Translations under genes and position numbers: made by a program
The notes under the pieces: model-generated
Told to the model about the DNA's origin: nothing
What the model saw: only the letters and a program-made list of their open reading frames with translations
The model's database searches: none
Source of the DNA: Geosiphon pyriformis uo1
Lineage: Eukaryota > Fungi > Glomeromycota
DNA: 64,000 nt
Direction: 5' to 3'
Assembly: GCA_016748015.1 (NCBI GenBank)
Contig: JAAOMT010000295.1
Span: 186,001-250,000 of the forward strand
Shown: one piece after another, positions 1 through 38,210 of the stretch
Position numbering within the stretch: the stretch's first letter is position 1
Layout: each line of letters begins with the position of its first letter

Positions 1-99
1 CATACCAATGTTGATAGCCTCTCAAGAATGAGACAAGATTAATACCAACAACAATTCCACCACAACTTACCAACTTACCAACAAAATAACCAAACAAGA

Positions 100-1485
100 A
101 TGGATTCCAGAAATTACAGCAATCTTAAAAATTATTTGGAGACCCTTACCATGCCAGAAAACTGGTCTTTAAGTGAAAAACATCATTTACAATACCAATC
201 AAAACAATATTTCATACACCAGAACAAAATCTATTATAAAAATCACAGAAACCCAAACCAACCACTCAGATTAGTACAAGAGAATGAAAAAGAAACAATT
301 TTATACAACATGCACACAGATCCGTCTTTAGCACACTTGGAAAGAGATAAAACAATTCAAAAAACCCTTGAACATTATTTTTGGCCTTACATGCAAAAAG
401 ACATTCGACAATATATAGAATCTTGTGATAGTTGTCAAAAAAGAGAAGGAATTCACTCCACAGAACCTTTAAATTCAATCAAAGTTGGACAATTTTTTGA
501 CAGAGTTGGAATTGATTTAGTCGGACCATTACCTATCACAACTCAAGGAAATTGCTATATTGCAGTAGCAGTAGATTATCTTACCAAATGGCCTGAAACT
601 AGAGCCATCCAAAGAGCAGATGCAAAATCAGTAGCAAATTTCATCTATGAAGACATTATTTGTAGACATAGATGTCCAATTGAACTTTTATCTGATCAAG
701 GAACACATTTTGTGAACAACTTAATACAAGAAATTTGTAAATGGTTCAATGTCAAAAGATTTCTATCATTATCTTATTACTCTCAAACAAATGGACTTGT
801 AGAATGTTTCAATAGAACATTGTGTGAATCTCTAGCCAAAGTCTCAACAGACTTTAAGCAGGAATGGGATATCTTTATTCCATCAGTGTTACTAGCATAC
901 AGAATGCTAAAACAAGATATTATAAAACACATACCATTTGATTTTACTTATAGAAGGACAGCAACATTACCAATTAATTTCACAGTGGAAACATACTCAG
1001 TGCAACCAATCAATGAAGAAAACTTTCAAGAAACACTCCAAAGAAGGGCCTACACTCTTCTTAGTACACTGAAAGGAAAAAGAAGAATAGCAGCAACTCA
1101 TATTGAACATTCCCAAGCTTAACAAAAAGAAAAACATGACAACAAATTACCATCTATTACCAACAAATTTAAAGTTGGAAATAAAGTTCTCTTATACAGA
1201 ACTAAGACTGAAAAACAATGGAGTAGAAAATTTGAAAACAAATGGAATGGACTATTTTATATTCACGAAATTCTAGGCAATGGATCATACAAGTTAAGAC
1301 TTGATGACAAAATACTAGTAAAAGTTGCACATAGAAACAGATTAAAACATTATCATTCCAGAAACAATCCTGAAACATTAATTCCACAAATTGGTATACA
1401 TTCTCCTTTAATTAATCCTGAAGATATTCCCCGAAATTTAGAACTAATAATTATAATAGAACAACAACCAAACTTGAACACTTAA
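100..1485 (+). pseudogene. Gypsy integrase (HHCC, DDE core, GPY/F-like C-terminus), one internal TAA at 1120-1122
   Basis: MH...HL...CDSCQ; GIDLVGPLP; LLSDQGTHF; QTNGLVE. The frame continues after the stop with KFENKWNGLFYIHEILGNGSYKL and ends in TAA at 1485. Confidence 0.93.
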
Positions 1486-1628
1486 ATTTTACAATAATTT
1501 TCTAATAAAAATACAAAGACAAAAATAGTAAATAATTACAAAAACACTTAAACCCAAAAACAAATAAAAACCCCATATCCAAAAATAATTTTCTTTATTC
1601 TCTCTTTTCATAATTAGTCAATTTTATC

Positions 1629-2336
1629 ATGATTATTTCCCGAAATATTCAACAAATATCCCAAAAGTTAATATTAGCCTTGAAAACACTTCCTGACTTA
1701 TCCATAACGATTAATGGAAGTCAAATTAATTACATTCAGAAAAAAACCACAGCCCCAGTAGCAAATCATTCACAGAACTATCACCCCTATAGAAAAAAAA
1801 CAAGAAGTCACTCTGAAAATAGGTTACCAAGACTTTTGAAGCAAGCACTGGAAGAAAATCTTTTAATTGCCCCTATTGACATTCCATCAAATACTACAAT
1901 GCAACAAAAACTTTTACTACTTTTCAATGAACAGAACAATGAACACACCCCTATCTATAAATACTTTCACATTGGAAAGACACTTTATGAACGAAAACTA
2001 GAACTTGAAGCAACAAATCTCACTCCTGAAGCTATACAAAAACAAATCCACAATGAATTCAAAACAGCAGCTGAACCAACAAACATTCGCTACAAACTTA
2101 GAACAGCTTTTAGACTCTATAATTTGTTTAATACTTGTGAAAATATTCTACAAAATCTAATACTGCAACCAATAAAAGTCCAATACATTGGCAAACTCAC
2201 AGAACTGAAATTTCAACAATTTTCAGACCAGATTACTTTAATTATTTTAGATCACTATCTCAATATTACAAATAGTGCTTGGACTTCGACAGAACTCAGT
2301 CTTGAGGAGGAGATTATGTTACCAGTAGAATTTTAG
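1629..2336 (+). CDS. Accessory ORF3 of element A, 235 aa, unknown function; runs through the PPT into the LTR
   Basis: Intact ORF between integrase and LTR. Homologous N- and C-terminal motifs occur at the same position in elements C, D and F. Confidence 0.8.
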   Translation: MIISRNIQQISQKLILALKTLPDLSITINGSQINYIQKKTTAPVANHSQNYHPYRKKTRSHSENRLPRLLKQALEENLLIAPIDIPSNTTMQQKLLLLFNEQNNEHTPIYKYFHIGKTLYERKLELEATNLTPEAIQKQIHNEFKTAAEPTNIRYKLRTAFRLYNLFNTCENILQNLILQPIKVQYIGKLTELKFQQFSDQITLIILDHYLNITNSAWTSTELSLEEEIMLPVEF

Positions 2337-3307
2337 TTATTAATTAGCATGAAATTACCCTTATAATTCCTATAATTCATTAGTATATTAATATTATTTC
2401 AAATTATCATTTATTATTTAATCAATTATCACATATCACAATTCAATTAAATAATCCAATTAGTATAACAGAAAGTAGAATGATCAAATTACACAATACT
2501 CTGAACTTTGTAACATTCAAAAATTTGCCGAAATTTACAGAAATTCGCCGAAATTTATAGAAATTCGCCGAAATTATGAATAGTTCACCCAAATTAATCA
2601 ATAGTTCAGCGAAATAACTTGTAGTCCATTAAAATGTATCTTTAGTTTGTCGAAATTTGAGCAAAAAGAAAAAGTACAAGTTCATAGACTAGTCTATAAC
2701 AAGTTGTATAAAAGAAGAGCTTTTCTCTTCAAGAAAATGTATCTTACTTTAGATTTATCACTTAGAATTATTCATATACACACAAAAAGAAATAAATATC
2801 AAATAATTTGAAAAAACCAAATTCTTTAATTATTGCACTTGGAAAATCCCCAAAACCTAACTAACATTTTGAAATTGATTAGCTACCAATTTCAGTAAAC
2901 TGTTAGTGACTCCAGGCCTGAATAGAAAACATTTCTCTTGACAGAATTCAACTTCTTTTACATTTCTTTTACATTTCTTTTATTTTCTTATTATAATCAT
3001 TAAGGTAGCCTACAGACAAAATTTCTGTAGAAGAATTGATTTTTACAGCAAAGTAACTACACATTTTTAGTGAGCTTCCAGACGAGCAATTCCTGAAAAA
3101 GAGTTGACGTTTACTACAATGTAACTACATAAAGTAACTGGCAAGGAATTGACTATTTCACTTATAAGCCCAGCAAGTTCAAATTATAGAAGATAATTTG
3201 AAGATAAATTCAGTTATTGGAGGTTTAACTACTTCTAGAAAACATAAATTTGCAACCAACAGACATTTACAACATTCAAGAAAAGAGACCAAAAACCTCT
3301 GGTAACA
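2317..3307 (+). repeat. 3' LTR of element A (991 bp)
   Basis: 9-bp terminal inverted repeat TGTTACCAG/CTGGTAACA; follows the PPT; TATAAAA near 2706 and AATAAA near 2791; homologous to 48932-49902 and 57559-58546. Confidence 0.93.
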
Positions 3308-3816
3308 ATGGCTTTTGCTTCTGGCCATTTTGTAAGATAGTCTATAGTCACTGCAATATATTTGTTGCCTCTACTGGTGATTGTTAATGGTCCGACTAAG
3401 TCAATTCTAATGCAATCAAATAGTTGTCTTATTTTGATTAGTCTTAATGGTTCACTGAGTTTTGTTTTACCTCTTCTTTGACAAGCATTACAACTTTGAA
3501 CATATTAGATGATGTCTAAATACATTGATGGCCAATAGTATCTTTTTCTGGTTCTTTCTATAATTGCTTCTTTATGAAAATGTCCTGCTGTTGGATCTGA
3601 GTGCATGTTAAACAATATTATTTCTTTTTCTGATTTTGTAATTACTTTGGTTGGTTGGTCTGGATTTCTTCTGTTTTTCTAGTAAAATATATTTTGATGA
3701 TTGATGAAATATTTTGATTGTTGTTTTATGTTGTTTTGTTCTTTTTGAGATAATTTTTCCTTGAACAATTGAGTATTTATATAATGCTGGAGTTGTTGGT
3801 ATTTTTGTGTGTTTAT
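3308..3816 (-). pseudogene. Integrase N-terminal part of element B (start codon decayed to ATA), interrupted by element A
   Basis: Near-identical to the ORF 26890-27531 region (NTQKYQQLQHY...MHSDPTAGHFHK). Confidence 0.88.
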
Positions 3817-3846: not shown

Positions 3847-6800
3847 TTAGATTTGTCTCATTTGCAACAATCCATCGACATTTCCATTGCCTTTTCTTTT
3901 TTTATAATGTACTGTATAATTGAATGGTAAAAGTTTTATTTTCCATCTGGCATGATAATCATTTGCAAATTTTTGTTTCTGGATTGAAGTCAATCTTTTG
4001 TGATTCATATATATTTCAAACTTTTGGCTCAAGTATTCTCTCCATTTAATGACAGCCCAATAGATTGCTAAGTGTTCCAGTGCTAGAGTTCTATAATTCT
4101 TTTCAGCTGGACTTAAATTTCTACTGGCTTAAGCTACTGGATGCTCTCTTCCATTAGATTCTTTCTGTGATAATACTGCTCCCAATGCTTGACCTGATGC
4201 ATCAGTAGTAATAATAAATAGTTTGTTGTGATCTGAATACATCAATACTGAAGCTTGAATAAGCTTTCTTCTCAATGTGTCAAATGCTTTTTGTTGAGCT
4301 TCAGTCCATTTATACTTCATATTCTTGGTTTGTAGATGGTGAAGTGGCTGAGTTAGTTTAGAAAAGTTTTTGATGAAGCAGCAATAGTAGCCTGTGAATC
4401 CCAAAAATGCTCTTAGTTCTGGCAAGTTGGCTGGTACTAGAAAGTTCTTAACTATTTTGATCTTGTTTGTATCTGTTTTGATTCCGTTTTTGCTCACCAC
4501 ATGTCCCAAAAACTTGAGTTCAGTTTTTCCAAAGAAACATTTGGTTGTATTTAGTTTCAATTCAGCTCTTCTTAACCTTTTAAATACTTGTTGGAAATGA
4601 TGCAAATGATCATTGAATGTTTTTGAGAATACATTGATGTCATTCAAGTATACAACTACTGTTTTCCATAGTAATTCAGTATAGACAATTTCCATAAGCC
4701 ATTAGAATGTTGCTGGAGCATTCATTAAGCCAAATGGCATGACTTCAAACTCAAAATTTTTTTCTCTTGTGGTGAACACTATTTTTTCTTTGTCAGCTGA
4801 ATCCATGGCTACTTGTCAGTAACTACTATCTAAGTCCAGTATTGAAAACCATTTATTTTCTCCAAAAGTGTCAAATAGTTTTTGGATCTTTGGAGTTGGA
4901 TAGCTATCATCTTTTGTTATTCTATTCAGTTTTCAGTAGTCTACACAAAAACAAATTTTTCTATTCTTTTTATGAACTAGTACTACTGGTAATGACCATA
5001 GATTCATTGATGGCTGAATTAGCCTATTGTCAAGTATCTGATTGATTTCTTGATGAATGATCTCATGGCTAGCTGGTGGTATTTTGTATGCTCTTTGTTT
5101 AATTGGCATTGCATCTTCAGTCTTGATCTGATGCTGGATGATGTTGGTTTGACCAAATTCATTTTTGCTAGCAAAGATGTCATTAAAATTGTTAAGTAAT
5201 ATTTTGAGTTGCATCTGTTGAAGTGGATCTAGATTCTCCATGTTCATTTGTTCCAATTGTTTTGGTTGGAGCAGATAACATTCACTTTGTTTATAGATAG
5301 TTTGTGATGTAATGTCCACATATCTGCAAAGCTGTAGAAAATCTGGAATGTGATTTGGTAGTTGATTCTCAACTTCAGTGGTCAAATATCCAATAATAGT
5401 TCTTTTTGGTATTTTAATAACACTTCCAGTTGTGTTGTAGATGGGAATTTTAATGTTTTTGGGGCTTTTGGCTAATATATAGAGATTAATAAGTCTAATC
5501 TCTCCTGATTTACAAATGGTGGCTTCTGCTTCAAACAACTGAGCCTGATTCTTTACTTCTCTTTTTATAGATAACATATACTGGTCATATGATGGAATAG
5601 AAATTTATTGACAGGTTGAGATAATTTCTCCTTTGTCAATAATCTTTTCCTTTGTTATATTAACTAGTATGTCTATTTTACTCATTAATCCAAATTCTTA
5701 TATCCCTTTAGCAGTAATCCCTAATTTTTTTCTGTTTCCTATTGACACTAATTGAGCTATTTTCACCAGAGGTAGAAATATTACTTGTGCTATCTTTTTA
5801 TTTGGCTCTATAATATAGGCCTTTTCAGAGTCATTTTGTAGTATAGCAATGATATTTCCTACATACCCTGCATCAATTATTTCTCCTTTAATGTTGATTT
5901 TTTTTTTCATTAGGCTACTCCTAGATGCTAATTGAACCATAGTTGTTGTTGGAATTTTCAGAGCTATTTTGAGATTAATATATGTGCACGAATTTGGTTC
6001 CAATTTAATGGCTTCTTTTTCTAGATATCTCAGATCAAACTCTGTGTCAGTATCATGCACATGTTCTGGCATAATACCTTCCTTATTGTCACTATACCAT
6101 TTGAGCTTCTGCTCCTTAGATAGATCAGGAAGTGCAATATATATTTCGGGGTTTGAATTGGAGTCTGAATTGCTAATATTTTTGTTGTCATTTTGAGCAG
6201 AGTTGAAACTGTTATTTTCATTATTGTTGGTGTCAGAGTTTGAATTGGGATTGAAAATTGATTCTGATTCTAATGCATAGTTGTTGATTGGTTCTTCTTC
6301 CTCTGGGATTGTGTAGATTATGCGTGATGGTAGATTGTAAATGAGATTACATTTATTACAATATTAAAAGTCACATAGAATTAAACAGTGGTTATATAGT
6401 TGAGTGTTGATTTCTTCCAAGCATTGCTTCTGCTCTTCTTTCATAGGTGCTAGCTCTTGATAATTTTCATGAAATTGTTCTGGATCTAGGAGATTTATGA
6501 TTGGTTTTGGGTCCCAGTTGAGTTTTATAGGTTCAGGTGGGTTATTTTTAATTGTTTTTATCTCTTCTGGTGTTACTCCTTTGATTTTGGCAAGTGCTAT
6601 TTGCCAGATTTTGTCATCATCATGTGGACATCCATCCAAACATTTGATGGCTTGTCTCTAGGCAGCATCTATGGGTGTTCCTTTTCTCACCCAGTTACTT
6701 ATGAGAATTGTGTATTGACACAATTCATCGCATGTTTCTCTTTACTCAGGAATGTCATTCCACATTCTTTTATTCAGAAGAGTTTCTTCACAAGCCAAAC

Positions 6801-9800
6801 ATAGTTTATTGTCCTATTTTCCAATCCATTTTAGCCTTCCAAAGTGTTTAATAATGCATGAACAGCAGAATTTTGTTGCCAAAGTGTACTTCTCATCGTC
6901 ACCACAATAAGTGCCCATTAACAACAATTTCTTGCCACAATCAATGCATACCAGTTTTGGGCAGCAATAAATGGATTGGTAGGATGTAGTATAGAAATTA
7001 TAAGTGAGATTGCTGTCGATTGTTGGTTTTTTTTCTTTCTTCTTTTCTTTTTCTTTTTTGTCTTCTTTCTATTCCCAATTTATTTGTTCTTCTTGGTCAT
7101 TGTCAGTTTCCCAGGCTTGGTCAGCTTTCCAGATAAGTTCTTCACTCTGCTTTCCTTTACTGTTGTTGTCTCATGAAGATACTGGCAGCAGCTCATTGTG
7201 TTCGGTGTTGGTCCAGGAAACTTGGTAGACTTTCCAGGTAGGTTTCTTCTCCTCTTTCTCAAATTTAATAAGTGGGGTTGTCGAGTTGGTGGTCTTGAAA
7301 TGGCTACATGTGGCTGGTATATGTGTGTGTCAGCCATTCTGGTTAATTTGAAGCTCTTGTGTATTCCAATCAAGCAATGTGTTGGTTTTGGATAGCCAAT
7401 CATTCTCAATGAGTGCTTGGTATTGGGTGGCTTTTATGATCAGTACTTTGATTGGGACTATAATACCATTGATTTCGATGGAGAAGTTGTCAATCTCACC
7501 AATGAGAGTTTTTGTTGTTTCATTGGTGGTTATGATTCTGGTGCTGGCAGTGCAATCAACTTAGCAACCTAATTGGTTCATGAGTTGTTTTGTAATGATG
7601 CTACCAACTGATCCACTATCTAGGATCAGTTTAATAAAGTGGCCATCAACTTTGACATCAGTATATATGGCCATAATAAGTTTTTCTTCCAAAGCAGCTC
7701 CACTAAATAATGGCATGGTCAATGGTTCTTCAAGTTTAAACAGGAAGATGGTGTCTAGTGATTCATTCTCAGTAATGGTACCTGGCAGAATATTGCTGGT
7801 AAGTGTTAATTGTTGGTTGGTCTTCGGATTATTAGGTTGGATGTCTTCTGTAGTAACCAGGAGACTTAAATAGTTCTGGGAATTTGGGTTTTGGGTGTAC
7901 CCAGTACCCAAATTCCATTGTAAAGATCTTGCTGGTTGTGTAAAAGAACTGGAGATCAGTTGGTGAACTACTATTGACGATCTCCAGCTTTGTTGGGTCA
8001 ATCTCAGCCTTTGGATTTTGTTTTGAGGTAAGTTTTATGGTGGTGTTTGAATTTGTTAAGGCTGATAGATTATCTAAGATTGCAGCTAATAAATGAGTTG
8101 TAACTGTGGTTAATAAATTGTCAGTATTGTTGGTTGATAAATTGGTGCTTGATATACTGGTGGATGATAAAGTGGTTGCTGTGTCATAAGTATGTAATTC
8201 TGATGATATGGCTCTAAGTTTGATAGGTTATTTGGAATTTGAAACTGGCAATCGGGGTTTTAATATTGATTTTCTGATCATTGGTTATTTAAGCAATGGC
8301 AGCAATTGATTTGTAGGTGTTCTTGTTTACCACAATAGTAGCAAACATGCATTTCTTGTTGCCATTGTTGATTGGTTGACAATGATAAACACAACTAATT
8401 CTGGAAATGATTCGCATTTTCAGAATTATTATGTTGTTGTGGTGGTAGATAAATTGTGCGATTGTCAGCTAAATATTTCTCTAATTTCTGATTGATAGAA
8501 TCATTAAATTGGTTTAATTTGGAATCCAATTCAGATGATCCATTCATTACTAGATTAATGGCTTGAGCATGGTTAGCTTCAAGTTCAGTGGCTTCAAAAT
8601 CTTAAGCATTTATAACGGCTGCTTGCAGATTGATAGGATGCAATGGATGTACGCATTGTAGAATACTATTGCATAATCCGCAAATAAACTGATTTAGGAT
8701 CTGGGCCACTGTAAAATAATTGGCGTCAATGGCTTGGATTTGGTGCATATTTCTATGGAAGTGTCCTAAATAAGTAGTAACTGCTTTATTTTCTCCTTGT
8801 TTAATGGTAGTGAATGTGTTTGCTAGCCTGTTAATGCTGTTATTGTTGCTGAAATATCTTAAGAATTCAATTTTGAATGCATTAAAATCTTGGGATTTGT
8901 TGACCAGACTTTAATACCATGAATTGGCAATATTCTATAGAAAATATGGGATGGCTTGTATGGCTCTGGCGTCATTCCATCCATTAGCTGCAATAGCTTT
9001 TTCCACATCATTTAGCCATACTTAGGCGTCGTCCTCTTCACTGGTGAATTTTTCAAGTTTGGCTATTAGTACATATGTTATTGGATCTAAGTTGGGTTGT
9101 GGTTGCTGCTGAATTTGTTGTTGAGGTAGCAGTTGTGGTTGTTGTTGCTGTTGGGTGTTTGGTGGAGCTGATGGTAGATTGATCACGATTACTGGAGGTA
9201 AGTGCTGATTAATTACATTGGGGTTTTAATTATTCTGATTTTCTGGAGTTTGATTAACCAGAGTTTTAATTTCTGAATGTTCTAAGATCAGGTTTTGCTT
9301 ATTAACTTCCTGATTGCTACTCTCTTCTTCCTCGGAGTTGGTTATTTCCCAAGGATTAACAGTTCCAAAATCTGGTTGTGGTGGTGGTGATCAAATTTTT
9401 AATGGCATTGGGGATTATAATTTAAATTTCTTGAAATAATCGCCATATGTTTCTAATAACTCTGCCTTCTTTTGTTTATTTTGGAATGGAATTCTGTTTA
9501 GTGATATTGTTGCACTTGTTGTAGCTGTGTTTATTATATTAATAGTGCTTTTGGGTGTGTAGTGATATGATGGATTAGCAGGTGAATCAAACTTTTGTTT
9601 TTTCCAAGTGAATAGTTGGATTTTCTTTGGTGTTCCTGCTGGTGTTTGTAGCTTTCTTTTGCCTTTGTTTGCAAAAGTGATAGGAAATCTCTGTTTGGTG
9701 TATTTTTCAATTTTCCTGTTTATTTCTGTAATTAGGGGTGCAAATAGGTAATTTTGTGGAAGGGTGGTGCTTTGGAGTAATTCACTGAAGAAGTTGTTAA

Positions 9801-9985
9801 AGGTGGATTTTGGATCTCTTTGGCCTCCTAAGTGATATACTACTCTTTCGTTGACATAGCAATTGAAAGCTGATTTGGTTGGCCAACTATTATTTGTTAA
9901 TCTGAAATGAATGTGATAGTGTTGGAATAAGAATTTTGCAAATCCTAAATGGTTTGTTCCTATTTCTTCAGATTCTGCTACTGTT
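3847..9985 (-). pseudogene. gag-PR-Cys-rich-dUTPase-RT-RNaseH polyprotein of element B, many nonsense changes
   Basis: ORF fragments 7561-8001 (protease), 6364-6639, 5698-6072 (dUTPase), 4933-5577, 4129-4695 (RT/RH), 3847-4032. Confidence 0.92.
5680..6072 (-). pseudogene. dUTPase domain within pol of element B
   Basis: Motifs FDLRY, QLASRSSL, IIDAGYVGNI, KIAQVIF, LGITAKGI match trimeric dUTPase motifs I-V. Confidence 0.9.
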
Positions 9986-10024
9986 TAGATGATTATGATT
10001 GGTGCTGTTCTCTGTAGAATTATA

Positions 10025-10041
10025 CCTCACAGGAAGCACCA
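10025..10041 (-). promoter_or_regulatory. Primer-binding site TGGTGCTTCCTGTGAGG
   Basis: Lies 2 nt after the LTR end and is complementary to a tRNA 3' end (..GCACCA). tRNA identity is uncertain (elongator Met or Ile-UAU-like). Confidence 0.85.
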
Positions 10042-10043
10042 AA

Positions 10044-10827
10044 TGTTACAGATAATTATTTGGGGTCTTAAATCAAATAACAAATCTGTAACTTGGTGCT
10101 TAATATCTTGACAATGCTAATGATACTGGTATGTTGGTTGTATCTGAAGATTTTAGAGTTGAGTCCTTTGTATAATGAACAAAGATTCAATGACAATATA
10201 GTTGGTTGGTGAGTTGTGTTTCCAATTTCTGTCTTTAGCTTGGTGGCCAGTTTATTCTGGCAGTCATGCCCTTCTAGTAAGCTATCCATTAATATATATA
10301 TAATTTTACTCTTATTTCTGGGTTTTTTACCAGGCTATTTGTGATGTCAATTACTCAGTGCTTTAATTCTTAATTAGTTAGTATATGACAGTAAAAATTA
10401 AAGAAAGAAAAAAATAAAAGAAAATAAAAAAATGAGCCAAGGCAATGTGCACATTAGTATCTTGTCAATAACCATGATCAAGAGCTATTGTTCCAGCATA
10501 GTTAGGTATCAATTACTATCAACATAAAGTGTTGATAGTGGAGAGTCAATTTGGATAGTAAATGATTTATTTATTTAATATTTGTGGATAGAAGATTTCT
10601 AACTAAAGAATTCTTATCTTTCTACTTCTAATGCTACTGCTATATATACATAATTGATGTTCTATGAGATCACTCATATTCCCAAGCAATGTGTTATAAT
10701 TTCTTGAGCAATGTGCTGTAATTTTTATCATTGTTCTACATTGCTAAGCAATGTGCTTATATGCTACATACTATTCACTCATTAGTCTACTATTCTCTCT
10801 ATATCTGTTTTTTTTTTATGAGTAATA
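10044..10827 (-). repeat. 5' LTR of element B
   Basis: TGTTAC...GTAATA termini; TATATATAG box on the minus strand near 10640; homologous to seven other LTRs in the window. Confidence 0.92.
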
Positions 10828-18480: not shown

Positions 18481-19289
18481 TGTTACAGATGATTATTTGG
18501 GGTCTCAAATCAAATAACAAATCTGTAATTTGGTGCTTGATTGATCATGTTGTTGGTAATATCTGAAGGTGTTGTTTATCTGAAGGTTTTGTTGTGGAGT
18601 CCTTTGTATAATAAACAGAGATTCAATGGTTGTCTTTTCAGTAGTCTCCCAGAATTGCAATTCCATCAAATTTTTTTCTTAGTGTGATGACCAGTAATCT
18701 TGGCAAAGATGCTTTTCTGATAAGCTATTCTTAAACTCTCAATTCTTATACCCTTTCTTTGGGGTTTTTTATCAGGCTATCCGTGATGTCAATAACTCAG
18801 CACTTAATTTTCAAGTAATTAGTAAAACAAAAGAGATAACAAAAACAAAAGAAATTTAAAAGAAATAACCCAAGACAATGAATGTTAATATCCCATCAAT
18901 AGCCGTAATCAAGAGCTATTATTTCAATAAAATTAAGTATCAATTACTATCAACATGAAGTGTTAATAGTAGAGAATAGATTAAAATAGTGAATAATTAT
19001 TTATTTGTGATGTGGAAGATTGCTTAGATCAATTCTAAACAGAAAGGTCTCTAACTAAAAAATTCTGTCTTTTCTACTTCTAGCACTACCACTATATATA
19101 CATAATTGAGATTCCTCAATTCCTCAATTTTTCACATCAGGAATCCTGTGATTCTTTGTACAAGAATTCTGAAATTCCTAGAATCCTGCAATTCCTCTTG
19201 AGAGGAATTCTGGAATTTCACATTTACTACAGCTACTTCTGATTGGCTAATTTATATGCTAATATACTCTCTATGTTCTATGAGTAATA
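18481..19289 (-). repeat. 3' LTR of element C
   Basis: TGTTACA start, GTAATA end, PPT adjacent; matches 42182-43004. Confidence 0.92.
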
Positions 19290-19303
19290 TTATTCTCTTC
19301 TTT

Positions 19304-19942
19304 TTAATATTGAGCTCTGTTAAAATTTTCCAAATCTCCTAACTTTAATTCTCTGTCTTTGAGTATTTCTTGAACTTCTTTTTCGAGAATTACTTGAGTT
19401 ATTTTGTTCTGTAATTCTTCAAATTGGGTGTTGTTTATTTTTTTTATTTGGTTAACTGTAATGGAATCCATTTCTGGATTGAGTAAGATTTTCAGTCTGT
19501 CTTGAAATCCAGCATGCAATTGATAGATGGCTTTTGCTTGTGTTGTTAGATTGTTCTTACCCACAAATTGTTCCAGTTGTTGCAATATTGTTGTGTCAAA
19601 TAATTGTTTTGTTTTATCTGTATATAAGTTTTGAATATTCAAGTGTTGTTCCAAGTGGAAATAACAAAAGTTTCTTGGAAATTTGTGTATCCACCATTTC
19701 CAAGTTTCTTTGATCAACTCTTGATATGTAATGACAATTGTTGGTTCTTCTATTGCTAATTTTATTTTTAGAACCATTTTGTCAATAATGTTTTCTGTTT
19801 TTTTTTGACTTTTATATTTGGATATCTTTCTGGTATCTCAGTATTTAATGGTTTGTTGATTAATAGTAATTTCTATATTCTGTTGTTGAATCAATTGGAA
19901 GAGTTGTTGTGCTAGTAAGTAAATGTTGTCAATGATTTCCAT
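19304..19942 (-). pseudogene. Accessory ORF3 of element C (about 212 aa, one internal TGA)
   Basis: ATG at 19942 gives MEIIDNIYLLAQQLFQLIQQQNIEITINQQTIKY*DT, in frame with ORF 19304-19777; stop abuts the PPT. Confidence 0.8.
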
Positions 19943-19996
19943 TTTTCTGCTGTCTTCCATCACATCTACCATGTCTTTTTATATTTTTTTATTGGT

Positions 19997-21377
19997 TCAA
20001 TTCGACGTGTTTAGTTCAATAATTATTATTGATTCTAAATCTCATGAAATCTCATCTGGTTGGACTAGTACTTGTTGTATTCCTAATTGTGAAATATTAC
20101 TGGTAGATAATGATACTATATGATAATATAATTTCAATCGATTATTATGTGCTACTTTGATTAAGATTTTGTTGTTTAACCTTAATTTATAAGCTCTATT
20201 TCCAAGAACTTTTTCTATGTAAAATGGTCTGTCCCACTTGGGGTCAAATTTTTCACTTTATTGTTTTTCTGCTTTAGTACAATGTAGAAGCACTTTGTCT
20301 CCAATCTTGAATTCAACTGGTTTATCTGGTAGTTGGTTATCTTGTCTTTCTTTTTGTTTCTCTTGTGACTTTTAGATGTTATCAGCTGCTTTTCACTGTT
20401 TGTTTTCTAGTGTCTCTATTAAGTCATATGTTCTTCTTAACAATGTTCTTTGGAAATTTTCTTTGTTATTGGTTCTGTTGAATATGTTTTGACTTCTATC
20501 TTAACTGGTAATGTTGCTGTTCTACTATATACTAGTTCAAATAGTGTTGTTTGTATAGTGTCTTGTTTCATTGTTCAATAAGCAAATAATACTAATAGTA
20601 TAAACAAATCCTATTTGTCCTGGTTTTCTTGGCTGATTTTGACAATAGCTTTACACAATATTCTGTTAAACTTTTCAACTAGCCTATTTATTTGTGGATG
20701 ATATGATGATGATAATGGTCTTTTTATTCCAAATCTTTGACTTAATTCTGCTAATGTTCTATTCACAAAGTGAGTTCTTTGATCTGATAATAGTTTTTTT
20801 GAACATCTGTGTCAACATATCAAATCTTGATGAACAAATTCAGCAATGAATTCTGTATCTGCTTTTTGAATGGCTTTTGCTTCTGGCCATTTAGTAAGAT
20901 AGTCCATGACTACTGCAATATATCTGTTGTCTCTACTGGTAATGTTAATGGTTTGACTAAGTCAATTTTAATGCAATTAAATGGTTGCCCCACTTTGATT
21001 GGTCTCAATGGTTCACTCAGTCTTGCTCCTCCTTTTCTCTGACAAACATCACAATTCTGAACATATTGGATAATGTCTGAATACATTGATGGTCAATAGT
21101 ATCTTTTTCTGATTCTTTCTATCATTGCTTCTTTATGAAAATGTCCTGCTGTTGAATCTGAATGCATGTTGAATAATATTGTCTCTTTTTCTGGTTCTGT
21201 GATTACTCTGATTGGTTGGTCTAGATTCTTTTTATTTTTCCGATAAAGTATATTTTGGTGGTTGATAAAATATTTTAATTGTTGTTTTATGTTGTTTTGT
21301 TCTTTTTGAAATAATTTCTTCTTGAACAATTGAGTATTTATATAATGTTAGAGTTGTTAGTATTTTTGTATATTCAT
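19997..21377 (-). pseudogene. Integrase of element C (own ATG)
   Basis: ATG AAT at 21377; fragment 21093-21329 MHSDSTAGHFHK; colinear with D integrase. Confidence 0.88.
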
Positions 21378-21408
21378 TTTTTTGTTATATTTGTGGGTTG
21401 AAATGTTT

Positions 21409-24400
21409 TTAGATTTGTCTCATTCACAACAATCTGTCAGTATTTTCATTTTTTTTTCCCTTTTTATAATGTATTATATAATTAAATGGTAATAGTTCTA
21501 TTTTTTATCTGGCATGGTGATTGTCTGTAAACTCTTGTTTCTGAATTGAAGTCAATTTTTTGTGATTGGTATACACATCAAACTTTTGACTCAAGTATTC
21601 TTTCTATTTAATAACAGCCCAATGAATAGTTAAGTGTTCCAGTGCTGGAGTTCCATAGTTTTTTTCAGCTAAACTTAAGCTTCTACTGGCATATACTACT
21701 GGATGTTCTTGTCCATCTGATTCTTTCTGAGATAATACTGCTCCTAATGCTTGGCCAGATACATCAGTTGTGATTATGAATGGCTTGCTATGGTTTGGAT
21801 AGATTAGTACTGGAGCTTAAATAAGCTTTCTTCTTAATGTATCAAAAGCTTCTTGCTGAATTTCTGTTCATTTATAATTGGTGTTTTTTGTTTAGAGTTG
21901 GTGTAGTGGTTGAGTTATTTTAGAAAAGTTCTTGATAAAGCAGCAGTAGTACTCAGCAAATCCCAAAAATGCTCTTAGTTCTGTGAAATTATTTGGTACT
22001 AAAAAGTTCTTGACAATCTCAATCTTGTCTGGATCTGTTTTGATTCCGTTTTTGCTCACCATATGTTCCAAAAACTTGAGTTCAGTCTTCCCAAAGAAAC
22101 ATTTAGTTGTATTTAGCTTTAATCCAGCTCTTTTTAGCCTTTCAAACACTTGTTAGAAATGGTGCAGATGGTCATCAAATGTTTTTGAGAATACATTGGT
22201 GTTATCCAAGTATACAACTATGGATTTCCATAGTAGCTCAGTATAAACAATTTCTATAAGTCACTGAAAAGTGGCTGGAGCATTCATCAAGCCAAATGGC
22301 ATTACTTTAAATTCAAAGTTTTTTTCTTGAGTTGTAAAAGCCATTTTCTCTTTGTCTTCTGATTTTATGGTTACTTGCCAATAATTACTGTCTAAGTCTA
22401 AAGTTGAGAACCATTTTTTCCTCCCAAAAGTATTGAACAGCTCTTAAATCTTTGGAGTTGAATAGCTATCACTTTTGGTTACTCCATTCAATTTCCAGTA
22501 CTCCACACAAAAGCAGATTTTCCCATTTTTTTTATGGACTAGTACTATTGGTGATAACCATGGACTCATTGATGGTTGAATTAACCCATTGTTAAGCATC
22601 TGATTGATTTCTTAACAAATAATCTCATAACTGGCTGGTAGTACTTTGTATGCTCTTTGTTTGATTGGCATTGCATCTCCAGTTTTGATCTGGTGTTGGA
22701 TAATGTTAGTTCTGCCAAATTTATTTTCACTGGCAAAGATGTCATTAAAGTTGTTGAGCAATATCTTGAACTGCATACATTAAAGTAAATCCAAGTTTTC
22801 CATGTTCATCTGTTTTAACTGTTCTGGTTGAAGCAGATAACATTCTTTTCATCCATATATTGTTTGTGATATAATGTCTACATATCTGCACAGTTATGGA
22901 AAGTCTGGAATGGTGTCTGAAAGTTGGTCTTTAATTTTTGTGGTTAAGTATCTGATGGTGGTTCCTGCCAATATCTCAATGATATTTCCTGTGTTGTTGT
23001 AAATAGAGATTTTAATGTGACTGTAGTTCTTTGCTGGTATGTATAAGTTGACCAAATTAATTTCTCCTGATTTATACAGTGTTGCTTTTGCCTCAAAAAT
23101 CTGAACCTGATCCTTTACTTTTCTCTTTATGACTACTATGTACTGGTTATATGATAGAATGGAAATTGGTTGACAGGTGAAGATAATTTCTCCCTTGTCA
23201 ATAATTTTTTTCTCTGCCATATTACCTAATACATCTATTCTACCTGTTGATCTAAATCCTTGTATTCCTCTAACCATAATCTCTAACTTTTCCCTGTTTC
23301 CTACTGATACTAATTGAGCTATTTTCACCAGAGACAGAAATATTGCCTGTGCTATCTTTTTATTTGGTTCTATGACATAAGCCTTTTCTGAATTGTTTGT
23401 AGTATTGCAATGATATTTCTTACATATTCTGCATCAATTATTCCTTCTCTGATGTTAATTTCTCTTTTCACTAAACTATTCCTAAATGCTAGTTGAATTA
23501 TGGTTGTTGCTGGAATTTTTAATGCTATTTTGAGATCAATGCATGTGTGTGAGTGTGGTTCTAATTTGATGGTGTCCTTTCCTGGATATCTCAGATCAAA
23601 TCTGGCATCTGTATTATGCACACATTTTAGTATGATACCTTTATTGTTGTCACTATACCATCTGAATTTCTGTTTCTTGAAAAGATCAGGAAGTATAATG
23701 TATGTTTCAGGATTTGAATTGGAATCTGAATTACCATTATTTTTCTTGTCATATTGAGCAGAGCTAGAACTGTTGTTTTTGTTGTCATCATTGTTGGAGT
23801 TTGAATCAAGATTGAAAGTTGATTCCGATTCTGATGCACAGCTGTTTATTGGTTCCTCTTCTTCTGGAATCGTGTAGATCATGTGTGGTGGTGGATTGTA
23901 AATGAGATTACACTCATTACAATATTGAAAGTCACATGGAATTAAACAATAGTCACATAGTCTTGTATTTATTTCTTCCAACCATTGCTCTTGTTCCTCT
24001 TTAGTGGGTGCTAATTTCTGGTAGTGTTCATGAAATTGTTCTGGATTCAGGAGGTTTATGACTGGTTCTGGGTCCCAGTCAAGTTTTATAGGCTCTAGTA
24101 GGTTGTTTTTAATTTCTCTGATTTCTTCAGATGATGCTCCTTCTATTTTGTCGATTGTCATTTTCTATATTTTATTGTCATCATGTAGACAACTGTCCAA
24201 TCACTGTATGGTTCTTCTCCAAATGGCTTCTATTGGTATCCTTTTTCTAACCCAGTCACTAATAAGGATTATGTACTGACATGAAGCATTGTATGTTCTT
24301 CTTTGACCAGGAATGTTGTTTCATATTTCTTTGTTGAGTAATGTTTCTCCACAAGCTAGACAAGGTTCATTGTCCTATTTTTCTTGCTGTTTTGGTCATC

Positions 24401-24566
24401 CAAAACATTCTATAATACATGCGCAGCAGTAAAATTTAGTCACTGTTGAGTATTTCTCATTGTCACCATAGCATATGCCCATTGATGACAATTTTTTGTC
24501 ACAATCAATGCATATTAGCTTTGATCAACAATAGTGAAACTGTAGTAATATGGTATAGGTGTATAG
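21409..24566 (-). pseudogene. pol of element C, 3' part (Cys-rich domain, dUTPase, RT, RNase H)
   Basis: ORFs 23370-24161 (CDYC..CNEC, DARFDLRYPG, IIDAEY), 22894-23328 (RGIQGFRSTG), 21892-22149. Confidence 0.9.
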
Positions 24567-25456
24567 TATTATAGATGATTATTTGGGGTCTCAAATCAAA
24601 TAACAAATCCGTAACTTGGTGCTCAATATCTTGACAAGGCTGGTGATACTAGTACATTAGTTGTATCTGAAGGTTTTAGAGTTGAGTTTTTTGTATAATA
24701 AACAGAGATTCTTTGTTGATGTTATTTGCAGTTTTCTGGTAAGTTGTTTCCCAATTTCTTTCTCAGCTTGGTGGCTGGATTTATTCTGGCATTCATGCCC
24801 TTATGGTAAGCTATCCAATAATATATATATAATTCTATTCTTATTTCTGGGTCTTTTACCAGGCTATCTGTGATGTCAATAACTCAGCACTTTAATCCTT
24901 AATCCATTAGTATTCAACAAAAAAAATCAAAGAAAGAAAGAAAAATAAAAGAAAATAAAGAAATGAGCCAAGGCAATGTACAAGTTAGTATCTTGTCAAT
25001 AGCCATGATTAAGAGCTATTGTTTCAGCATAGTTAAGTATCAATTACTATCAACACTTTATGTTAATAGTGAAAAGTGGATTTGGATAGTAGATAATTTA
25101 TTTATTTAATATTTGAGGATAGAAAATTTCTAACTAAAAGATTCTGCTTTTTCTACTTCTAATGCTACCACTATATATACATAATTGATGTTCTACAAGA
25201 TTGCTCACATTTCCAAGTGATGTGCTATGATTTCTTGAGCAATGCTTACATTGCTGAGCGATGTGCTTTAATTTTCTAACATCACTCCACATTGCTGAGC
25301 AATGTGCCATGTTTTCTGATATTGCTCCACATTGCTGAGCAATGTGCCATGATTTCTGACATTGCTCCACATTGCTGAACAATGTGCTTATGTGCTAAAT
25401 ACTATTCTTTTATTGGTCTGCTATTTTCTATATTTGTTTTCTTTTTATGAGTAATA
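24567..25456 (-). repeat. 3' LTR of element D
   Basis: Decayed termini TATTATAG...GTAATA; PPT AAAAGGAGGAG on the minus strand; matches 38230-39108. Confidence 0.9.
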
Positions 25457-25469
25457 TTATCTCCTCCTT

Positions 25470-26094
25470 TTAATATTGAGCTCCGTCAAAATTTTCATTT
25501 TAAATTAATTTTAATACTTTTTTTTCAAGTATTGTTTGTTCGACTCTGTTCTTCATGTTTTCTACTTGTGTATTGTTTATTCTTCTCCATTGGTTAATGG
25601 TTATGGTTTCCATGTCAGAGTGTAACAGTATTTCTGGATAGTTTTGAAATATGTTGTGCAGTTAATAAATTGTTCTTACATGTAGTGTCAAGTTCGTCTT
25701 TTTCTCAATAAATTTTTCAATTTGCTGTATTATGTTTTGGTTAAATACTCTCTTGGATTTGTCAATATACAATTTCTGAATATTCAACTTTTGACCTAGC
25801 TGGTAGTAACAGTATGATATTAGAAGTTGTTCTGTTCATTGCTTCTAATTCTTTTTTTGTTGGTGCCATAATAGATATTTTCCCAAAAGTGTTCTTTACT
25901 TTTTTTATTATGTTGTTTGACCAGTTTTTATCATTCTTTGGTAACCACTGATATAGTGTATTTTTTGTCTTTCTTTTGGTGTTTTGATAGCAAATTGTTT
26001 GGTTGTTAACAAAAATTTCCATGTCTAAAGGTTGTTGACTTAAGATCTGAAATAATTGTTGAACTATGGCGTGAATATGATCTGGTATTTCCAT
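25470..26094 (-). pseudogene. Accessory ORF3 of element D (frameshifted)
   Basis: MEIPDHIHAIVQQLFQIL...; downstream frame reads RTIY*LHNIFQNYPEILLHSDMETITINQWRRINNTQ, homologous to C ORF3. Confidence 0.78.
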
Positions 26095-26154
26095 TTTTTT
26101 TGGTTGCTTTTGTTATGTATACTGAGTTTTTATATACTCTTTTATTGTTTGATT

Positions 26155-27531
26155 TTATGTGTTTGGTTCAATGATTATGATTGGTTCCAGATTTCGTAGA
26201 ATCTTATCTGGTTGAACTAGTATTCATTGTACTCTTAATTGTAGAATGTTATTGGTAGATGATGATGCTATTTGGTGATATGGTTTCAGTCGATTACCAT
26301 GTGCTGCTTTGGCTAAGGTTTTGTTGTCCCATCTTAGTTTATAAGCTTCATTTCCAAGAATTTTTTCTATGTGAAATGGTTTGTCCCATTTGAGATTGAA
26401 TTTTCCACTCTATTGTTTTTCCACTTTGGTACAATGTAAAAGTACTTTGTCTTCAATCTTGAATTCAACTAGTTTATCTAATAATTGGTTATTGTGTCGT
26501 TTTTTTTGCTTTTTTTAAGACTTTTGAATGTTATTAGCTGCTTTTTGTTATCTGTTTTCTAGTGTTTCTATTAGGTCATATGTTCTTTTCAACAATGTTT
26601 CTTGGAAATTAGCTTCTGTTATTGGTTCAGTTGGATATGTACTGACCTTTCTCTTAACTGGTAATGTTGCTGTCCTATCATATACCAATTCAAATGGTGT
26701 TGTTTGTGTAGTATCTTGTCTCATTGTTTAATAAGCAAATAATACTGATTGTATAAACAAATTCCATTCATCTTGGTTTTCTTGACTGATTTTGGCAATT
26801 GCTTCACACAGTGTTTTGTTAAATCTTTTGACTAGTCTATTTGTTTGTGGATGATATGGTGACGATAATGGTCTTTTTATCCCAAATCTCTAACTTAATT
26901 CTGTTAATGTTCTATTCACAAAATGAGTTTCTTGATCTGATAATAGTTTTTTTGAACATCTGTGTTGACATATCAAATCTTGATGGATGAATTCAGCAAT
27001 GGATTCTGCATCTGCTCTTTGAATGGCTTTTGTTTCTGGCCATTTTGTAAAATAGTCCATGGCTACTGCAATATATCTGTTGTCTTTACTGGTGATTGTT
27101 AATGGTCTGACTAAGTCAATTCCAATGTGATCAAATGGTTGTCCCACTTTGATTGGTCTTAATGGTTTACTTGGTTTTGTTCTTTCTCTTCTTTGACAAG
27201 CATCACAATTTTGAACATATTGAATGATATATGGATACATTGATGGCCAATAATATCTTTTTCTGGTTCTTTCTATGGTCACTTCTTTATGAAAATGTCC
27301 TGCTGTTGAATCTGAGTGCATGTTGAATAATATTGTCTCTTTCTCTGGTTCTGTGATCACTCTAATTAGTTGATCTGAATTTCTTTTATTCTTCTGGTAG
27401 AGTATATTTTGATAATTGATAAAATATTTTGATTGTTGTTTTATATTGTTTTGTTCCTTTTGAGATAATTTTTCCTTAAACAATTGAGTATTTATATAAT
27501 GCTGAAGTTGTTGGTATTTTTGTGTGTTCAT
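26155..27531 (-). pseudogene. Integrase of element D (own ATG)
   Basis: ORF 26890-27531 with HHCC, GIDLV, LLSDQETHF; continues to TAA at 26155. Confidence 0.92.
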
Positions 27532-27562
27532 TTTTTGTTATATTTTTTGGGTTGAAATGTTT

Positions 27563-30500
27563 TTAGATTTGTCTCATTCGTGACAGTCCATTAGCATTTC
27601 CATTGTCATTTCTTTTTTTATAATGTATTATATAATTAAATAGTGAAAGTTCTATTTTCTATCTGGCATGGTAATCATCTGCAAATTCTTGTTTCTGGAT
27701 TGAAGTCAATTCTTTGTGATCAATGTACACTTCAAACTTTTGACTTAAGTATTCTTTCCATTTGATGACAGCCTAATAGATAGCTAAGTATTCTAGTGCT
27801 GGAGTTCCATAGTTCTTTTCAGCTGAACTTAAGCTTCTACTGGCATAAACTATTGGATGTTTTCTTTCATCTGATTTTTTCTGTAATAGTACTGCTCCCA
27901 ATGCTTGACCTAATGCATTGGTGGTGATTATGAATAGTTTGCTGTAATCTGGATACATTAATACTGGAGCTTAGATAAGCTTTCTTCTTAATGTGTCAAA
28001 CTCTTCTTGTTGAGCTTTGGTCCATTCATACTTCACCTTCTTGGTCTGTAGATGGTAAAGTGACTGAGCCAGTTTTGAAAAGTCTTTAATAAAATGGCAA
28101 TAATAGTCTGCGAAACCTAAAAATGCTCTTAGTTCTGTCAAGTTGGTTGGTACTGAAAAGTTTTTAACTACTTTGATCTTGTCTGGATCCGTTTTGATTC
28201 CATCTTTGCTCACTACATGTTCCAAAAACTTGAGTTCAGTTTTTCCAAAGAAACATTTAGTTGTATTTAGTTTCAATTCTGCTTTTCTCAATCTTTCAAA
28301 CACTTGTTGGAGATGATGCAGATGATTATCGAATGTTTTTGAGAACACATTGGTATTATCTAAGTATAATACTACTAATTTCTATAGTAATCTAATATAG
28401 ACAATTTCCATGAGCCATTAGAATGTTGCTGGAGCATTCATCAAGCCAAATGGCATGACTTCAAACTCAAAATTTTTTTTTCTTGTGGTAAATGCTGTTT
28501 TTTCTTTGTTGGCTGGATCCATGGCTACTTGTCAATAACCACTATCTAAATCTAGTGTTAAAAACTATTTATTTCCTCCAAAAGTGTCGAATAGTTTTTG
28601 GATCTTTGGAGTTGGATACTTATCATCTTTAGTTATTCTATTTAGTTTCCGGTAATCTACACAAAAACAAATTTTCCTATTTTTCTTATAGACCAGTATC
28701 ACTGGTGATGACCATGGACTTATTGATAACTGAATTAGCCCATTGTTAAGCATTTGGTTAATTTCTTGATGAATGATCTCATGGCTAGCTAGTGGTACTC
28801 TGTATGTTTTTTGTTTAATTGGCATTGCATCTCTAGTCTTGATCTGATGCTGAATAATGTTGGTTCAGCCAAATTCATTTTCACTGGCAAAGATGTCATT
28901 GAAATTGTTGAGTAACATTTTAAGTTGCATTTGTTAAAATGGATCTAGATTTCCCATGTTCATCTGTTCCAATTGTTCTGATTGGAGCAGATAATATTCA
29001 CTTCTTCTATAAATGGTTTGTGATATAATGTCAACATATCTGCAAAGCTGTGGAAAATCTAGAATGTAGTTTGGTGGTTGATCCTCAACTTTGGTAGTTA
29101 AATATCCAATAATAGTTCCCTTTGGTATTTTGATGATCTTTCCAGTTGTATTATAAATGGGGATTTTGATGTTTTTGAGGCTTTTGGTTGATATGTAGAG
29201 ATTGGTGAGTCCAATCTCCCCTGATTCACAAATAGTGGCTTCTGTTTCAAACAATTGAGCTTGATCTCTTACTTCCTTTTTTATGGCTAATATATACTGG
29301 TCATATAGCGGAATGGAAATTGTTTGACGAGTTAAGATAATTTCTCCTTTGTCAACAATTTTTTCTTCTGCCATATTAACTGGTATATCTATTCTACCCG
29401 TTGATTTAAATTCTTGTATTTCTCTTGCTGTTATACCTAATTCTTCCCTCTTTTCCACTGAAACTAACTGAGCTATCTTTATCAGAGGTAAGAATATTGT
29501 CTGTGCTATCTTTTCATTTGGTTCTATAATATTTGTTTTTTTTGAGTCATTTTATAGCATGGCGATAATATTTCCTATGTATTCCACATCAATTATTTCT
29601 CCTTTGATGTTGATTCCTTTTTTCACTAAACTACTCCTAGATGCTAATTGGACTATGGTTGTTGCTGAAATTTCCAGAGCTATTTTGAGATCAATATATG
29701 TGTGCAAATTTGGTTCCAATTTGATGGCTTTTTTTCCTGGATATTTCAGATCAAACCCTGCATTGGTATCATGTATGTGTTCTGACATAATACTTTCATT
29801 ATTATCACTATACTATTTGAGTTTTTGTTCCTTTGAGAGATCAGGAAGTGCAATAAATGTTTCAGGGTTTGAATCATTGTAATTTTTGTTGCTATTTGGA
29901 GCAAAGCTAGAACTGTTGTTTTCATTGTCATCATTGTCAGAGTTTGAATCGGAATTGAAAGTTGATTCCGATTCCAATACACAGCTATTGATTGGTTCTT
30001 CCTCTTCTAGAATCGTGTAGATCATGTATGCTGGTGGATTGTAAATGAGGTCACACTCATTACAATACTAGAAGTCACATAGAATCAAACAGTGGTCACA
30101 TAGTTGAGTGTTGATTTCTTTCAAGTGTTGTTTCTGCTCTTCTATTATGAGTGTTAGCTCTTGATAATGTTTGTGGAATTGTTCTGGATTTAGAAGATTT
30201 ATGACTGGTTCTGGGTTTTAGTCGAGTTCTATAGATTCAAGTAAGTTATTTTTAATTGTTTTTATCTCTTCTGGTGTCACTCCTTTGATTTTGGCGAGTA
30301 CCATTCACCAGATTTCATCATCGTCATGTGGACATCTGTCCAGACGTTTGATGGCTTGTCTTCAAGCAGTGTCTATGGACATTCCTTTTCTTATCCAGTT
30401 ACTTATGAGAATTGTGTATTAACACGATTCGTTGTATGTTTCTCCTTGTCCAGGAATGTCATTCCATATTCTTTTGTTCAGAAAAGTTTCTCCACAAGCC

Positions 30501-33687: not shown

Positions 33688-33820
33688 TTATTCCCTCCTT
33701 TAATATTGAGCTCCTGTGAAATCTTCTAAATTTTTTTTTTGTATTAATGTTGTTGCTGTAATTTCTATTGCTATTTGTAAATCTAATTTTATATATGACT
33801 GGAGTTTTTAACTATAGTGG

Positions 33821-34707: not shown

Positions 34708-34852
34708 GCAGTCTGTTCAGAATATTAATTTCAAATTTTGCATCTGTATTATGTGCATGTTCAGACATAATGTCCTTATTATTATTACTGAATTTAGTTA
34801 ATTCCTGCTCCATTGTAAAGTCTAGAAACGTGATATATTGTTTGGTGTTTGA

Positions 34853-35072
34853 AGTGGAGTTTGAATTTGTTGGCGGAGTTTAAATCATTGTTGTCATTAA
34901 TGGAGTTTGAATTGTTGTTATTATCAACAGAGTTTGAATTGTTGTTGTCATTAGCAGAGTTTGAATTGTTGTTGTCATCAGCAGAGTTTGAATTGTTGTT
35001 GTTATCAGCAGGTTTGAATTGTTGCTGTCATTAGCAGAGTTTGAATTGTTGCTGTCATCAGTGGAGTTTGAA
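34853..35072. repeat. 27-bp tandem array (about 7-8 units)
   Basis: Unit AGAGTTTGAATTGTTGTTGTCATCAGC; on the minus strand it encodes NSADDNNNS repeats inside a pol-linker fragment. Confidence 0.9.
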
Positions 35073-36064: not shown

Positions 36065-36198
36065 AAAAGTAATGGTGAAATAAAGATTTCGTGAATTCTA
36101 AGTGATTTTCCCTTGTTTTTTCTTGGTTTGCCACTTTTCTGCATGGTTGTTGTTGGTACTGGTTCTTTGTTGGATTATACTTCACAAGGAGCACTAAA

Positions 36199-38200: not shown

Positions 38201-38210
38201 TAGGATTATA

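Follow-up and report, generated by a model that had tools for sequence, protein, structure and literature searches.

A Ty3/Gypsy-type lineage with a free-standing integrase gene and a conserved third reading frame, found in Geosiphon pyriformis

In the standard picture, the integrase of long terminal repeat (LTR) retroelements reaches the particle within Pol. How, then, is the enzyme provided when it is encoded in an open reading frame (ORF) of its own? The question is raised by a 64,000-nucleotide stretch of the genome of Geosiphon pyriformis (contig JAAOMT010000295.1, positions 186,001 to 250,000; hereafter, the window), in which self-comparison revealed a nest of decayed LTR elements. LTR sequence makes up 41.2% of the G. 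pyriformis genome (PMC11952901; here and below, statements from cited papers refer to the portions of those texts that were covered). The first-pass annotation of the window had described a layout of gag, protease (PR), a Cys-rich stretch, dUTPase, reverse transcriptase (RT), RNase H (RH) and stop, followed by a separate integrase ORF and a third ORF (ORF3), and we find this layout in five decayed LTR elements (A, B, C, D and F), to the extent that their sequence is there. A clade with such a freed integrase must translate and package the enzyme by another route.

The window opens within element A, which lies on the forward strand. The end of RH and the Gag-Pol stop codon (1..42, TAA at 40-42) are followed by a CAA-rich spacer of 57 nt without ATG (43..99) and then by the integrase ORF (100..1485), which starts at ATG 100 and comprises H2C2, a DDE core and an SH3-like end; the domain scan detected the H2C2 and rve domains, and the frame carries one premature stop (1120-1122). 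After a further 143 nt lies ORF3 (1629..2336, 235 residues), which is open and crosses the polypurine tract (2304..2313) into the start of the 3' LTR (2317..3307). This LTR, 991 bp long and of the TG...CA type, has 7-bp inverted ends (TGTTACC...GGTAACA) and is inserted in the integrase of element B. The TAA after RH occupies the same place in 5/5 window copies (A, B, C, D and F), and the spacers between this stop and integrase measure 57, 30, 31, 31 and 50 nt, none of them containing ATG. Integrase begins with ATG in A, C and D and with ATA in B and F. ORF3 was found in A, C, D and F, the integrase of B being cut by A.

The window copies are heavily mutated: transitions dominate, LTR pairs differ mainly by them (82 transitions vs 2 transversions in element C), and CpG is depleted (0.07-0.27). 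Such mutation would suit a reading in which the split is only apparent, with an intron or recoding joining RH to integrase, or with the stops produced by decay. A DNA scan independent of ORF length confirmed 573 relatives in 33 of 64 parts of a metagenome collection, the best 80 of which were used. RH lies upstream of integrase in 51 of these 80 loci, and all 51 stop before integrase, the other 29 having no RH on the contig; a continuous RH-integrase frame, looked for in these relatives, was found in 0/51. For 48 loci, the RH end was complete and the integrase ATG could be assigned; here the frame offsets from RH to integrase were 11/19/18, covering all three frames and thereby excluding one fixed read-through or frameshift. 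Furthermore, open Pol ORFs of 1,370-1,621 residues end in a stop ahead of integrase, and 25 of 26 aligned integrases share the same start Met. Thus, the split between Gag-Pol and integrase is not due to decay. Many spacers are 60-100 nt long, an intron-like size; in five loci with a long gap, the stop appears to be premature, with the Pol tail still readable beyond it in the direction of integrase.

Protein searches bear on the same point. The window integrase gave 979 protein matches of 253-807 residues, and among the best 120 of these, 119 were integrases of 359-439 residues, seven of these being named Rhizophagus irregularis or R. clarus. As this search was length-limited, longer proteins were searched separately, yielding 104 matches among 2040 candidates. 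The top four of the 104 are gene models of mycorrhizal fungi with integrase in a longer protein, as an intron or recoding would predict, whereas none of the remaining 100 exceeds 243 bits, vs 359-455 for the stand-alone integrases. However, in all four models the initial 21-43 positions of the integrase profile are missing, as is the RH end motif in three, and one, P0277, is nearly identical to the stand-alone integrase P0220; by these sequence features, they are probably gene-calling joins. Together with the open Pol ORFs that stop short of integrase, the use of all three frames and the conserved start Met, this makes a merely apparent split very improbable.

The elements are of the Ty3/Gypsy type by their LTRs, capsid, domain order and target-site duplication (TSD), and depart from the canonical state in which integrase is part of Pol. 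They have TG...CA ends, a primer-binding site and a polypurine tract, as well as a Ty3-type Gag, PR, RT, RH and DDE integrase in the order PR-RT-RH-integrase. The primer-binding site of the window elements presumably matches the 3' end of tRNA-Met. In an RT-RH tree of 110 rows, built by a quick method with midpoint rooting and without the overly decayed element F, one branch (SH-aLRT 99) holds 20 split loci, window elements B, C and D and one R. clarus model. The outgroups were 86 other Gypsy-type polyproteins chosen by integrase similarity, mostly unnamed, with no retrovirus, Copia or BEL rows. Rows with integrase before RT form a separate branch, which we take to be Gmr1-order Gypsy. A FastTree of 187 integrase rows agrees on the clade (support 93), and Rhizophagus and Cetraspora sequences nest in it among the metagenome loci. 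The chromodomain PF00385 was absent from the 120 listed stand-alone integrases and from the window integrase. In viral contigs, no relative was found with the window integrase, the RT-RH or the hairpin pattern described below, the alignment giving 3 weak, unrelated matches.

The earlier proposal of a separate lineage, in which integrase has a free-standing ORF, ORF3 is conserved and non-canonical expression would be needed, is thus borne out by the 51/51 split loci, the trees and ORF3. No Gypsy clade with a separate integrase gene was found described in the literature, with Repbase, GyDB, REXdb, supplements and most subscription papers outside the scope of the search, and this clade, with its separately encoded integrase, orphan-fold ORF3 and, in a sub-branch, an RNA element, is apparently undescribed. 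In the portions covered, fungal or mycorrhizal Gypsy elements are treated without this layout (PMC3248453, bioRxiv 2021.03.30.436303, PMC11952901), the reviewed fungal elements having two ORFs with integrase inside pol (PMC3248453); bioRxiv 073510 has a frameshifted worm copy.

How, then, might integrase be made? Stop-to-ATG gaps in the 48 loci range from -20 to 1026 nt: 9 fall between -20 and +2, two of these being TAATG overlaps, 25 between 24 and 98, and 14 are longer. The start context is strong, with A at -3 in 47/61 and G at +4 in 55/61. Among 28 spacers of up to 170 nt, from related loci, ATG occurs 4 times vs 27.0 expected (0/300 shuffles as low), or vs 17.8 expected from dinucleotide shuffles (0/100 as low). 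We favour, at about even odds (probability near 0.5), a reading of these junction sequences in which ribosomes terminating on Gag-Pol would re-initiate on that RNA, at the following AUG: stop and start overlap in some loci, in most the start follows the stop closely with no AUG in between, and acceptor sites are not conserved. The LTR transcript would be translated as Gag-Pol, with termination after RH; ribosomes would then restart at the integrase's own AUG, and the free integrase may enter the particle by binding the RNA of its own synthesis or Gag. ORF3 would be a soluble accessory protein, possibly helping downstream translation. Precedents for re-initiation include the stop-start coupling of SART1, LINE-1 ORF2 across a 63-nt spacer and a fungal hypovirus (PMC5972666).

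Several points weigh against re-initiation. In the same source, it is described as rare after long ORFs (PMC5972666), and Gag-Pol here is long, at 1,000-2,050 codons. ORF3 would need a second re-initiation. Because the loci are related, they do not give the ATG test independent data points; CAT, too, is slightly scarcer than expected in the spacers (21 vs 28, 3/100 shuffles as low), and a short subgenomic leader would account for the scarcity of ATG just as well. Moreover, the spacers of one sub-branch (L011, L015, L029, L033, L042 and L079) are 192-547 nt long and hold 2-11 ATGs, which simple scanning would not cross.

The main rival, possible though less probable than re-initiation, is that integrase and ORF3 are translated from subgenomic mRNAs, either spliced from a 5' leader or transcribed from an internal promoter. 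LTR elements usually express their 3' ORFs, and foamy viruses their Pol, from subgenomic mRNAs. Such mRNAs would explain the long, ATG-containing spacers and the presence of two downstream ORFs, and a strong start context with short, AUG-poor leaders fits them as well. The ORF3s of LTR elements typically come from spliced messages (PMC5408684). However, no acceptor is conserved before the ATG, and AG is not enriched in the 28 spacers (94 vs 107); the window spacers of C and D have no AG, which decay may have erased, and an acceptor may lie inside RH. Subgenomic mRNAs also leave unexplained the 9/48 starts that lie within 20 nt of the stop.

A further clue is a 37-nt motif whose pattern matched in 24 loci; in 23 of them the start is assigned, and in 22 of these the motif has its end 0-14 nt ahead of the ATG. 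It is predicted to form a hairpin with an 11-nt conserved bulge (for example, L039:4464-4500); of the cells of its nine pairs, 99.4% are paired, and six of the pairs have changed on both sides, far above slid controls, in a structure drawn from the same, related sequences. A covariance model built from 21 copies gave 26 strong and 2 weak matches in the 80 loci. The hairpin was absent from 52/80 loci at E 1, some contigs being too short to hold it, and was not found in the window (best E 2). Rfam, searched with 14 loci at E 1, gave nothing over the motif, families not listed there being outside the scope. In 596 Gb of prokaryote assemblies, the scan gave one match, L084:1238-1274(-), located 37 nt before an integrase ATG. 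This 1,435-bp contig of a bacterial metagenome-assembled genome encodes a fungal-type integrase of this family and is probably a fungal binning contaminant. The R. irregularis integrases P0232 and P0244 group with the hairpin-bearing loci in the integrase tree.

The hairpin raises the possibility that ribosomes enter internally at the integrase AUG, with the spacer as guide and without dependence on upstream termination; the guides would be the 37-nt hairpin in one sub-branch and CAA- or U-rich tracts in others. The covariation and the close placement before the ATG, including the independent L084 match, speak for it. On the other hand, the hairpin, missing from the window and from most loci, is small and weak (-8.6 kcal/mol) and might serve just as well as a signal for packaging, export or protein binding, so that we regard internal entry as improbable. 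The hairpin also bears on splicing: its CAG, a candidate acceptor, is CGG in L025 and L053 with the pairing kept. In a second sub-branch, the spacers repeat GGAC/GGAT and TTGATTTAAC words, similarly spaced, ahead of the AUG (L001, L002, L004, L005, L007, L009, L010, L013, L014, L016, L017 and L022).

ORF3, the other conserved feature of the layout, exists in two types. The long window ORF3 had 184 protein matches among 449 candidates, and the best 120 were all hypothetical proteins of G. pyriformis, at up to 92% identity; more than 100 Geosiphon 'hypothetical proteins' are thus the ORF3 of this element (184 matches, best 120 inspected). Full-length relatives of the Geosiphon ORF3, at 30-33% identity, comprise two metagenome clusters and the other Geosiphon family, and the long-type P0146 sits 316 nt behind integrase in L003. 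Most relatives carry a shorter ORF3 of 130-160 residues, mutually homologous in all-against-all BLAST. Of the 46 loci that extend 500 nt or more downstream, 28 carry one type of ORF3, 20 of those 28 having built the profile; the 18/46 loci without ORF3 include one sub-branch as well as single replacements by other ORFs. Short and long types are weakly linked: they are collinear over 118 columns (E 0.0034, probability 9%), and the best long ORF3 scored E 0.012 among 3304 sequences, only just ahead of the best of 1000 shuffles (0.021); we regard the two types as likely homologous.

The short type is modelled as a compact, all-helical domain (pLDDT 91.7). Its fold had no match in PDB or BFVD at E 0.001 (best Z 5.0), and it has no Pfam family and no solved relative. 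The Geosiphon ORF3 gave a poor model (pLDDT 49.5) without a PDB match. An Atlas search with ORF3 returned unnamed Mucoromycota clusters at 0.93 and 0.91 and, among named clusters, none at 0.9; a match to a closterovirus coat protein (Atlas, 0.92, 150 shared features) was not taken. Judging from the models, ORF3 is a conserved helical protein without a known fold. It is not env-like, because none of 32 ORF3 proteins has a hydrophobic segment (highest 19-residue hydropathy 1.32); they contain 0-4 Cys. Coupling of ORF3 loss to stop-start overlaps was considered and dropped: overlap and ORF3-less loci lie mostly in one sub-branch and amount to one event, which is no test. Among the replacements, L031:1945-2889 holds a 314-residue ORF with what we take to be a Nudix-like box, and L017:6546-6944 encodes a helix-turn-helix protein in place of ORF3.

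A more far-reaching scheme combines these features into a genus-level Metaviridae lineage of arbuscular mycorrhizal fungi with a polycistronic mRNA, a hairpin-aided restart at integrase and the new-fold ORF3 as a transactivator; ORF3 would then be a functional parallel of caulimovirus TAV. We consider this combination doubtful.

The elements had also been called complex-retrovirus-like, with dUTPase as a marker of the lineage and a link to complex retroviruses. They do resemble complex retroviruses in having an enzyme apart from Gag, 3' accessory ORFs and a dUTPase. Foamy viruses make Pol apart from Gag, with integrase staying within Pol, and some lentiviruses have a dUTPase. In the window, the dUTPase is real (Pfam E 7e-14). 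Nevertheless, a dUTPase match sought in the ORFs of the 80 relatives, including 12 with PR and RT in one frame, was not found (best E 0.15), so that within this clade the domain is known only from Geosiphon copies. The domain is, moreover, already known from other Gypsy elements: a dUTPase between PR and RT is described for Postia placenta PosPlaTy3-5, with dUTPase-bearing elements in Phanerochaete and Tuber (Tmt1) (PMC2864245), and likewise in the rotifer elements Juno, Vesta and TelKA, which also have a zinc knuckle near dUTPase and varied ORF3s (PMC5408684). For these fungal and rotifer elements, unlike here, integrase is described as a Pol domain (PMC2864245, PMC5408684). The dUTPase, in its sequence context, would thus be a branch-specific extra of a known kind; together with the Cys-rich insert, it may have been added in the Geosiphon branch, where the two would limit uracil in cDNA.

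RH, too, is a single Ty3-type domain, only RT_RNaseH/RT_RNaseH_2 being found in the 6 RH-bearing Pol proteins scanned, unlike the tether plus second RH of Retroviridae, lokiretroviruses and Odin. In contrast to retroviruses and errantiviruses, there is no env-like third ORF. With dUTPase missing from the relatives, a single RH and an ORF3 without a membrane segment, the label 'complex-retrovirus-like' was overstated. Some relatives have a tail of up to 343 residues after RH: in L027, L039, L074, L056 and L024, Pol runs 219-343 residues beyond RH, the tail being acidic, then Cys/His-containing, with no Pfam family.

With non-chromovirus Ty3/Gypsy elements, the clade shares TG...CA LTRs, the primer-binding site, the polypurine tract, a Ty3-type capsid, CCHC, the PR-RT-RH-integrase order and the H2C2/DDE/SH3-like integrase. 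Unlike canonical members, it places integrase outside Pol in its own ORF, followed by a conserved ORF3 that is not env. Ginger/GIN transposons carry a stand-alone Gypsy-like integrase between inverted repeats, without RT; RH upstream sets 51/80 loci apart from these DNA transposons, and their LTRs set the window copies apart. Three Gypsy-like groups already recognised as lineages of their own were considered and set aside: Troyka, with CG...CG ends, a 3-bp TSD, integrase in Gag-Pol and a distribution in animals only (PMC12440569), vs TG...CA ends and a 4-bp TSD here; Odin, with a dual RH and integrase in Pol (PMC9040795); and Kuafuortervirus, with integrase in Pol, from animals (PMC11673190). 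In SART1, LINE-1 and the fungal hypovirus, a downstream enzyme ORF is reached on the RNA that also carries the structural ORF, through an overlap or a 63-nt spacer (PMC5972666), but SART1 and LINE-1 belong to other element classes and place a whole enzyme ORF downstream, whereas here only integrase is so placed, as known from sequence.

The natural junction variants, with their overlaps, short spacers and covarying hairpin, offer material with which re-initiation downstream of long ORFs could be examined in eukaryotes. R. irregularis, where members are predicted, is a model that can be cultured and that expresses Gypsy RNA (bioRxiv 2021.03.30.436303), and the question is thus testable. Annotation based on structure, if it looks for integrase in Pol, would class such elements as broken.

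The other window elements can be placed as follows. In element B (- strand), Gag-PR-Cys-rich-dUTPase-RT-RH forms one decayed frame (3847..9999, stop at 3849-3847) of 2050 codons, interrupted by 30 decay stops; its Pfam matches come in the order gag, protease, dUTPase, RT and RH. Its Cys-rich stretch (about 6987-6355, -) has 18 Cys in 211 residues and precedes the dUTPase (about 6117-5710, -); after the latter, 5700-5350 (-) resembles, by eye, a second, degenerate dUTPase-like domain. The 5' part of the integrase ORF (3308..3816, -) is cut by element A, and the primer-binding site (10025-10041) and 5' LTR (10044-10827) occupy 10025..10827 (-). Element C (18481..43004, -; LTRs 42182-43004 and 18481-19289) has its RH stop at 21411, integrase ATG at 21377 and ORF3 at about 19942-19337. 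Nested in C is element D (24567..39108, -; LTRs 38230-39108 and 24567-25456), with the RH stop at 27565, integrase ATG at 27531 and ORF3 at about 26094-25515. D in turn holds, in its gag, element Z (32741..37178, -), a short two-LTR derivative with a solo LTR inside (33821-34707). Element F (48932..58546, +; LTRs 48932-49902 and 57559-58546) belongs to the A family and is heavily mutated, with the RH stop at 55258, the integrase start at 55311 (ATA) and ORF3 at about 56878-57575. C, D and F carry gag, PR, the Cys-rich stretch, dUTPase and RT, the RH of F falling short of E 1e-3.

Two further claims of the first-pass annotation held in part. The 4-bp TSDs it had listed match, up to transitions, at 4/5 testable insertions (C, ACGT/ATGT; D, ATAG/ATGA; Z, CTAA/CTGG; solo LTR, GTGG/GCAG), but are degenerate, and the flanks of F (ATAA/AGAG) mismatch. 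For element Z, the 4-nt duplication is confirmed by the empty site in B. The LTRs, which had been called structured, are modestly so: the best 100-nt segments reach z -2.3 to -3.8, with 14-18 segments per LTR in 5 LTRs. An Rfam scan of the window gave 0 matches.

Minor observations concern the relatives' Gag and the remaining sequence. The Gag start of some relatives has a His/His/Cys-x2-Cys plus Trp motif (L017:299, L027:301, L074:6341 and L002:3157) that was not seen in the window Gag and, from its residues, is a possible extra zinc site. In L002, L004, L014, L039, L049, L074 and L077, a Gag start lies 0.5-1.8 kb after ORF3, an arrangement that collapsed LTRs, circles or tandem copies would produce. 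In the window, the segment 10828-12718 (-), which abuts the 5' LTR of B, has no Pfam match and related pieces near 61300-63100; it reads like what we take to be the start of a long interspersed nuclear element (LINE) endonuclease. A 2-kb stretch at 13001-15000 has 11% GC, and an array of about 87-nt repeats lies inside element Z (35392-36136).

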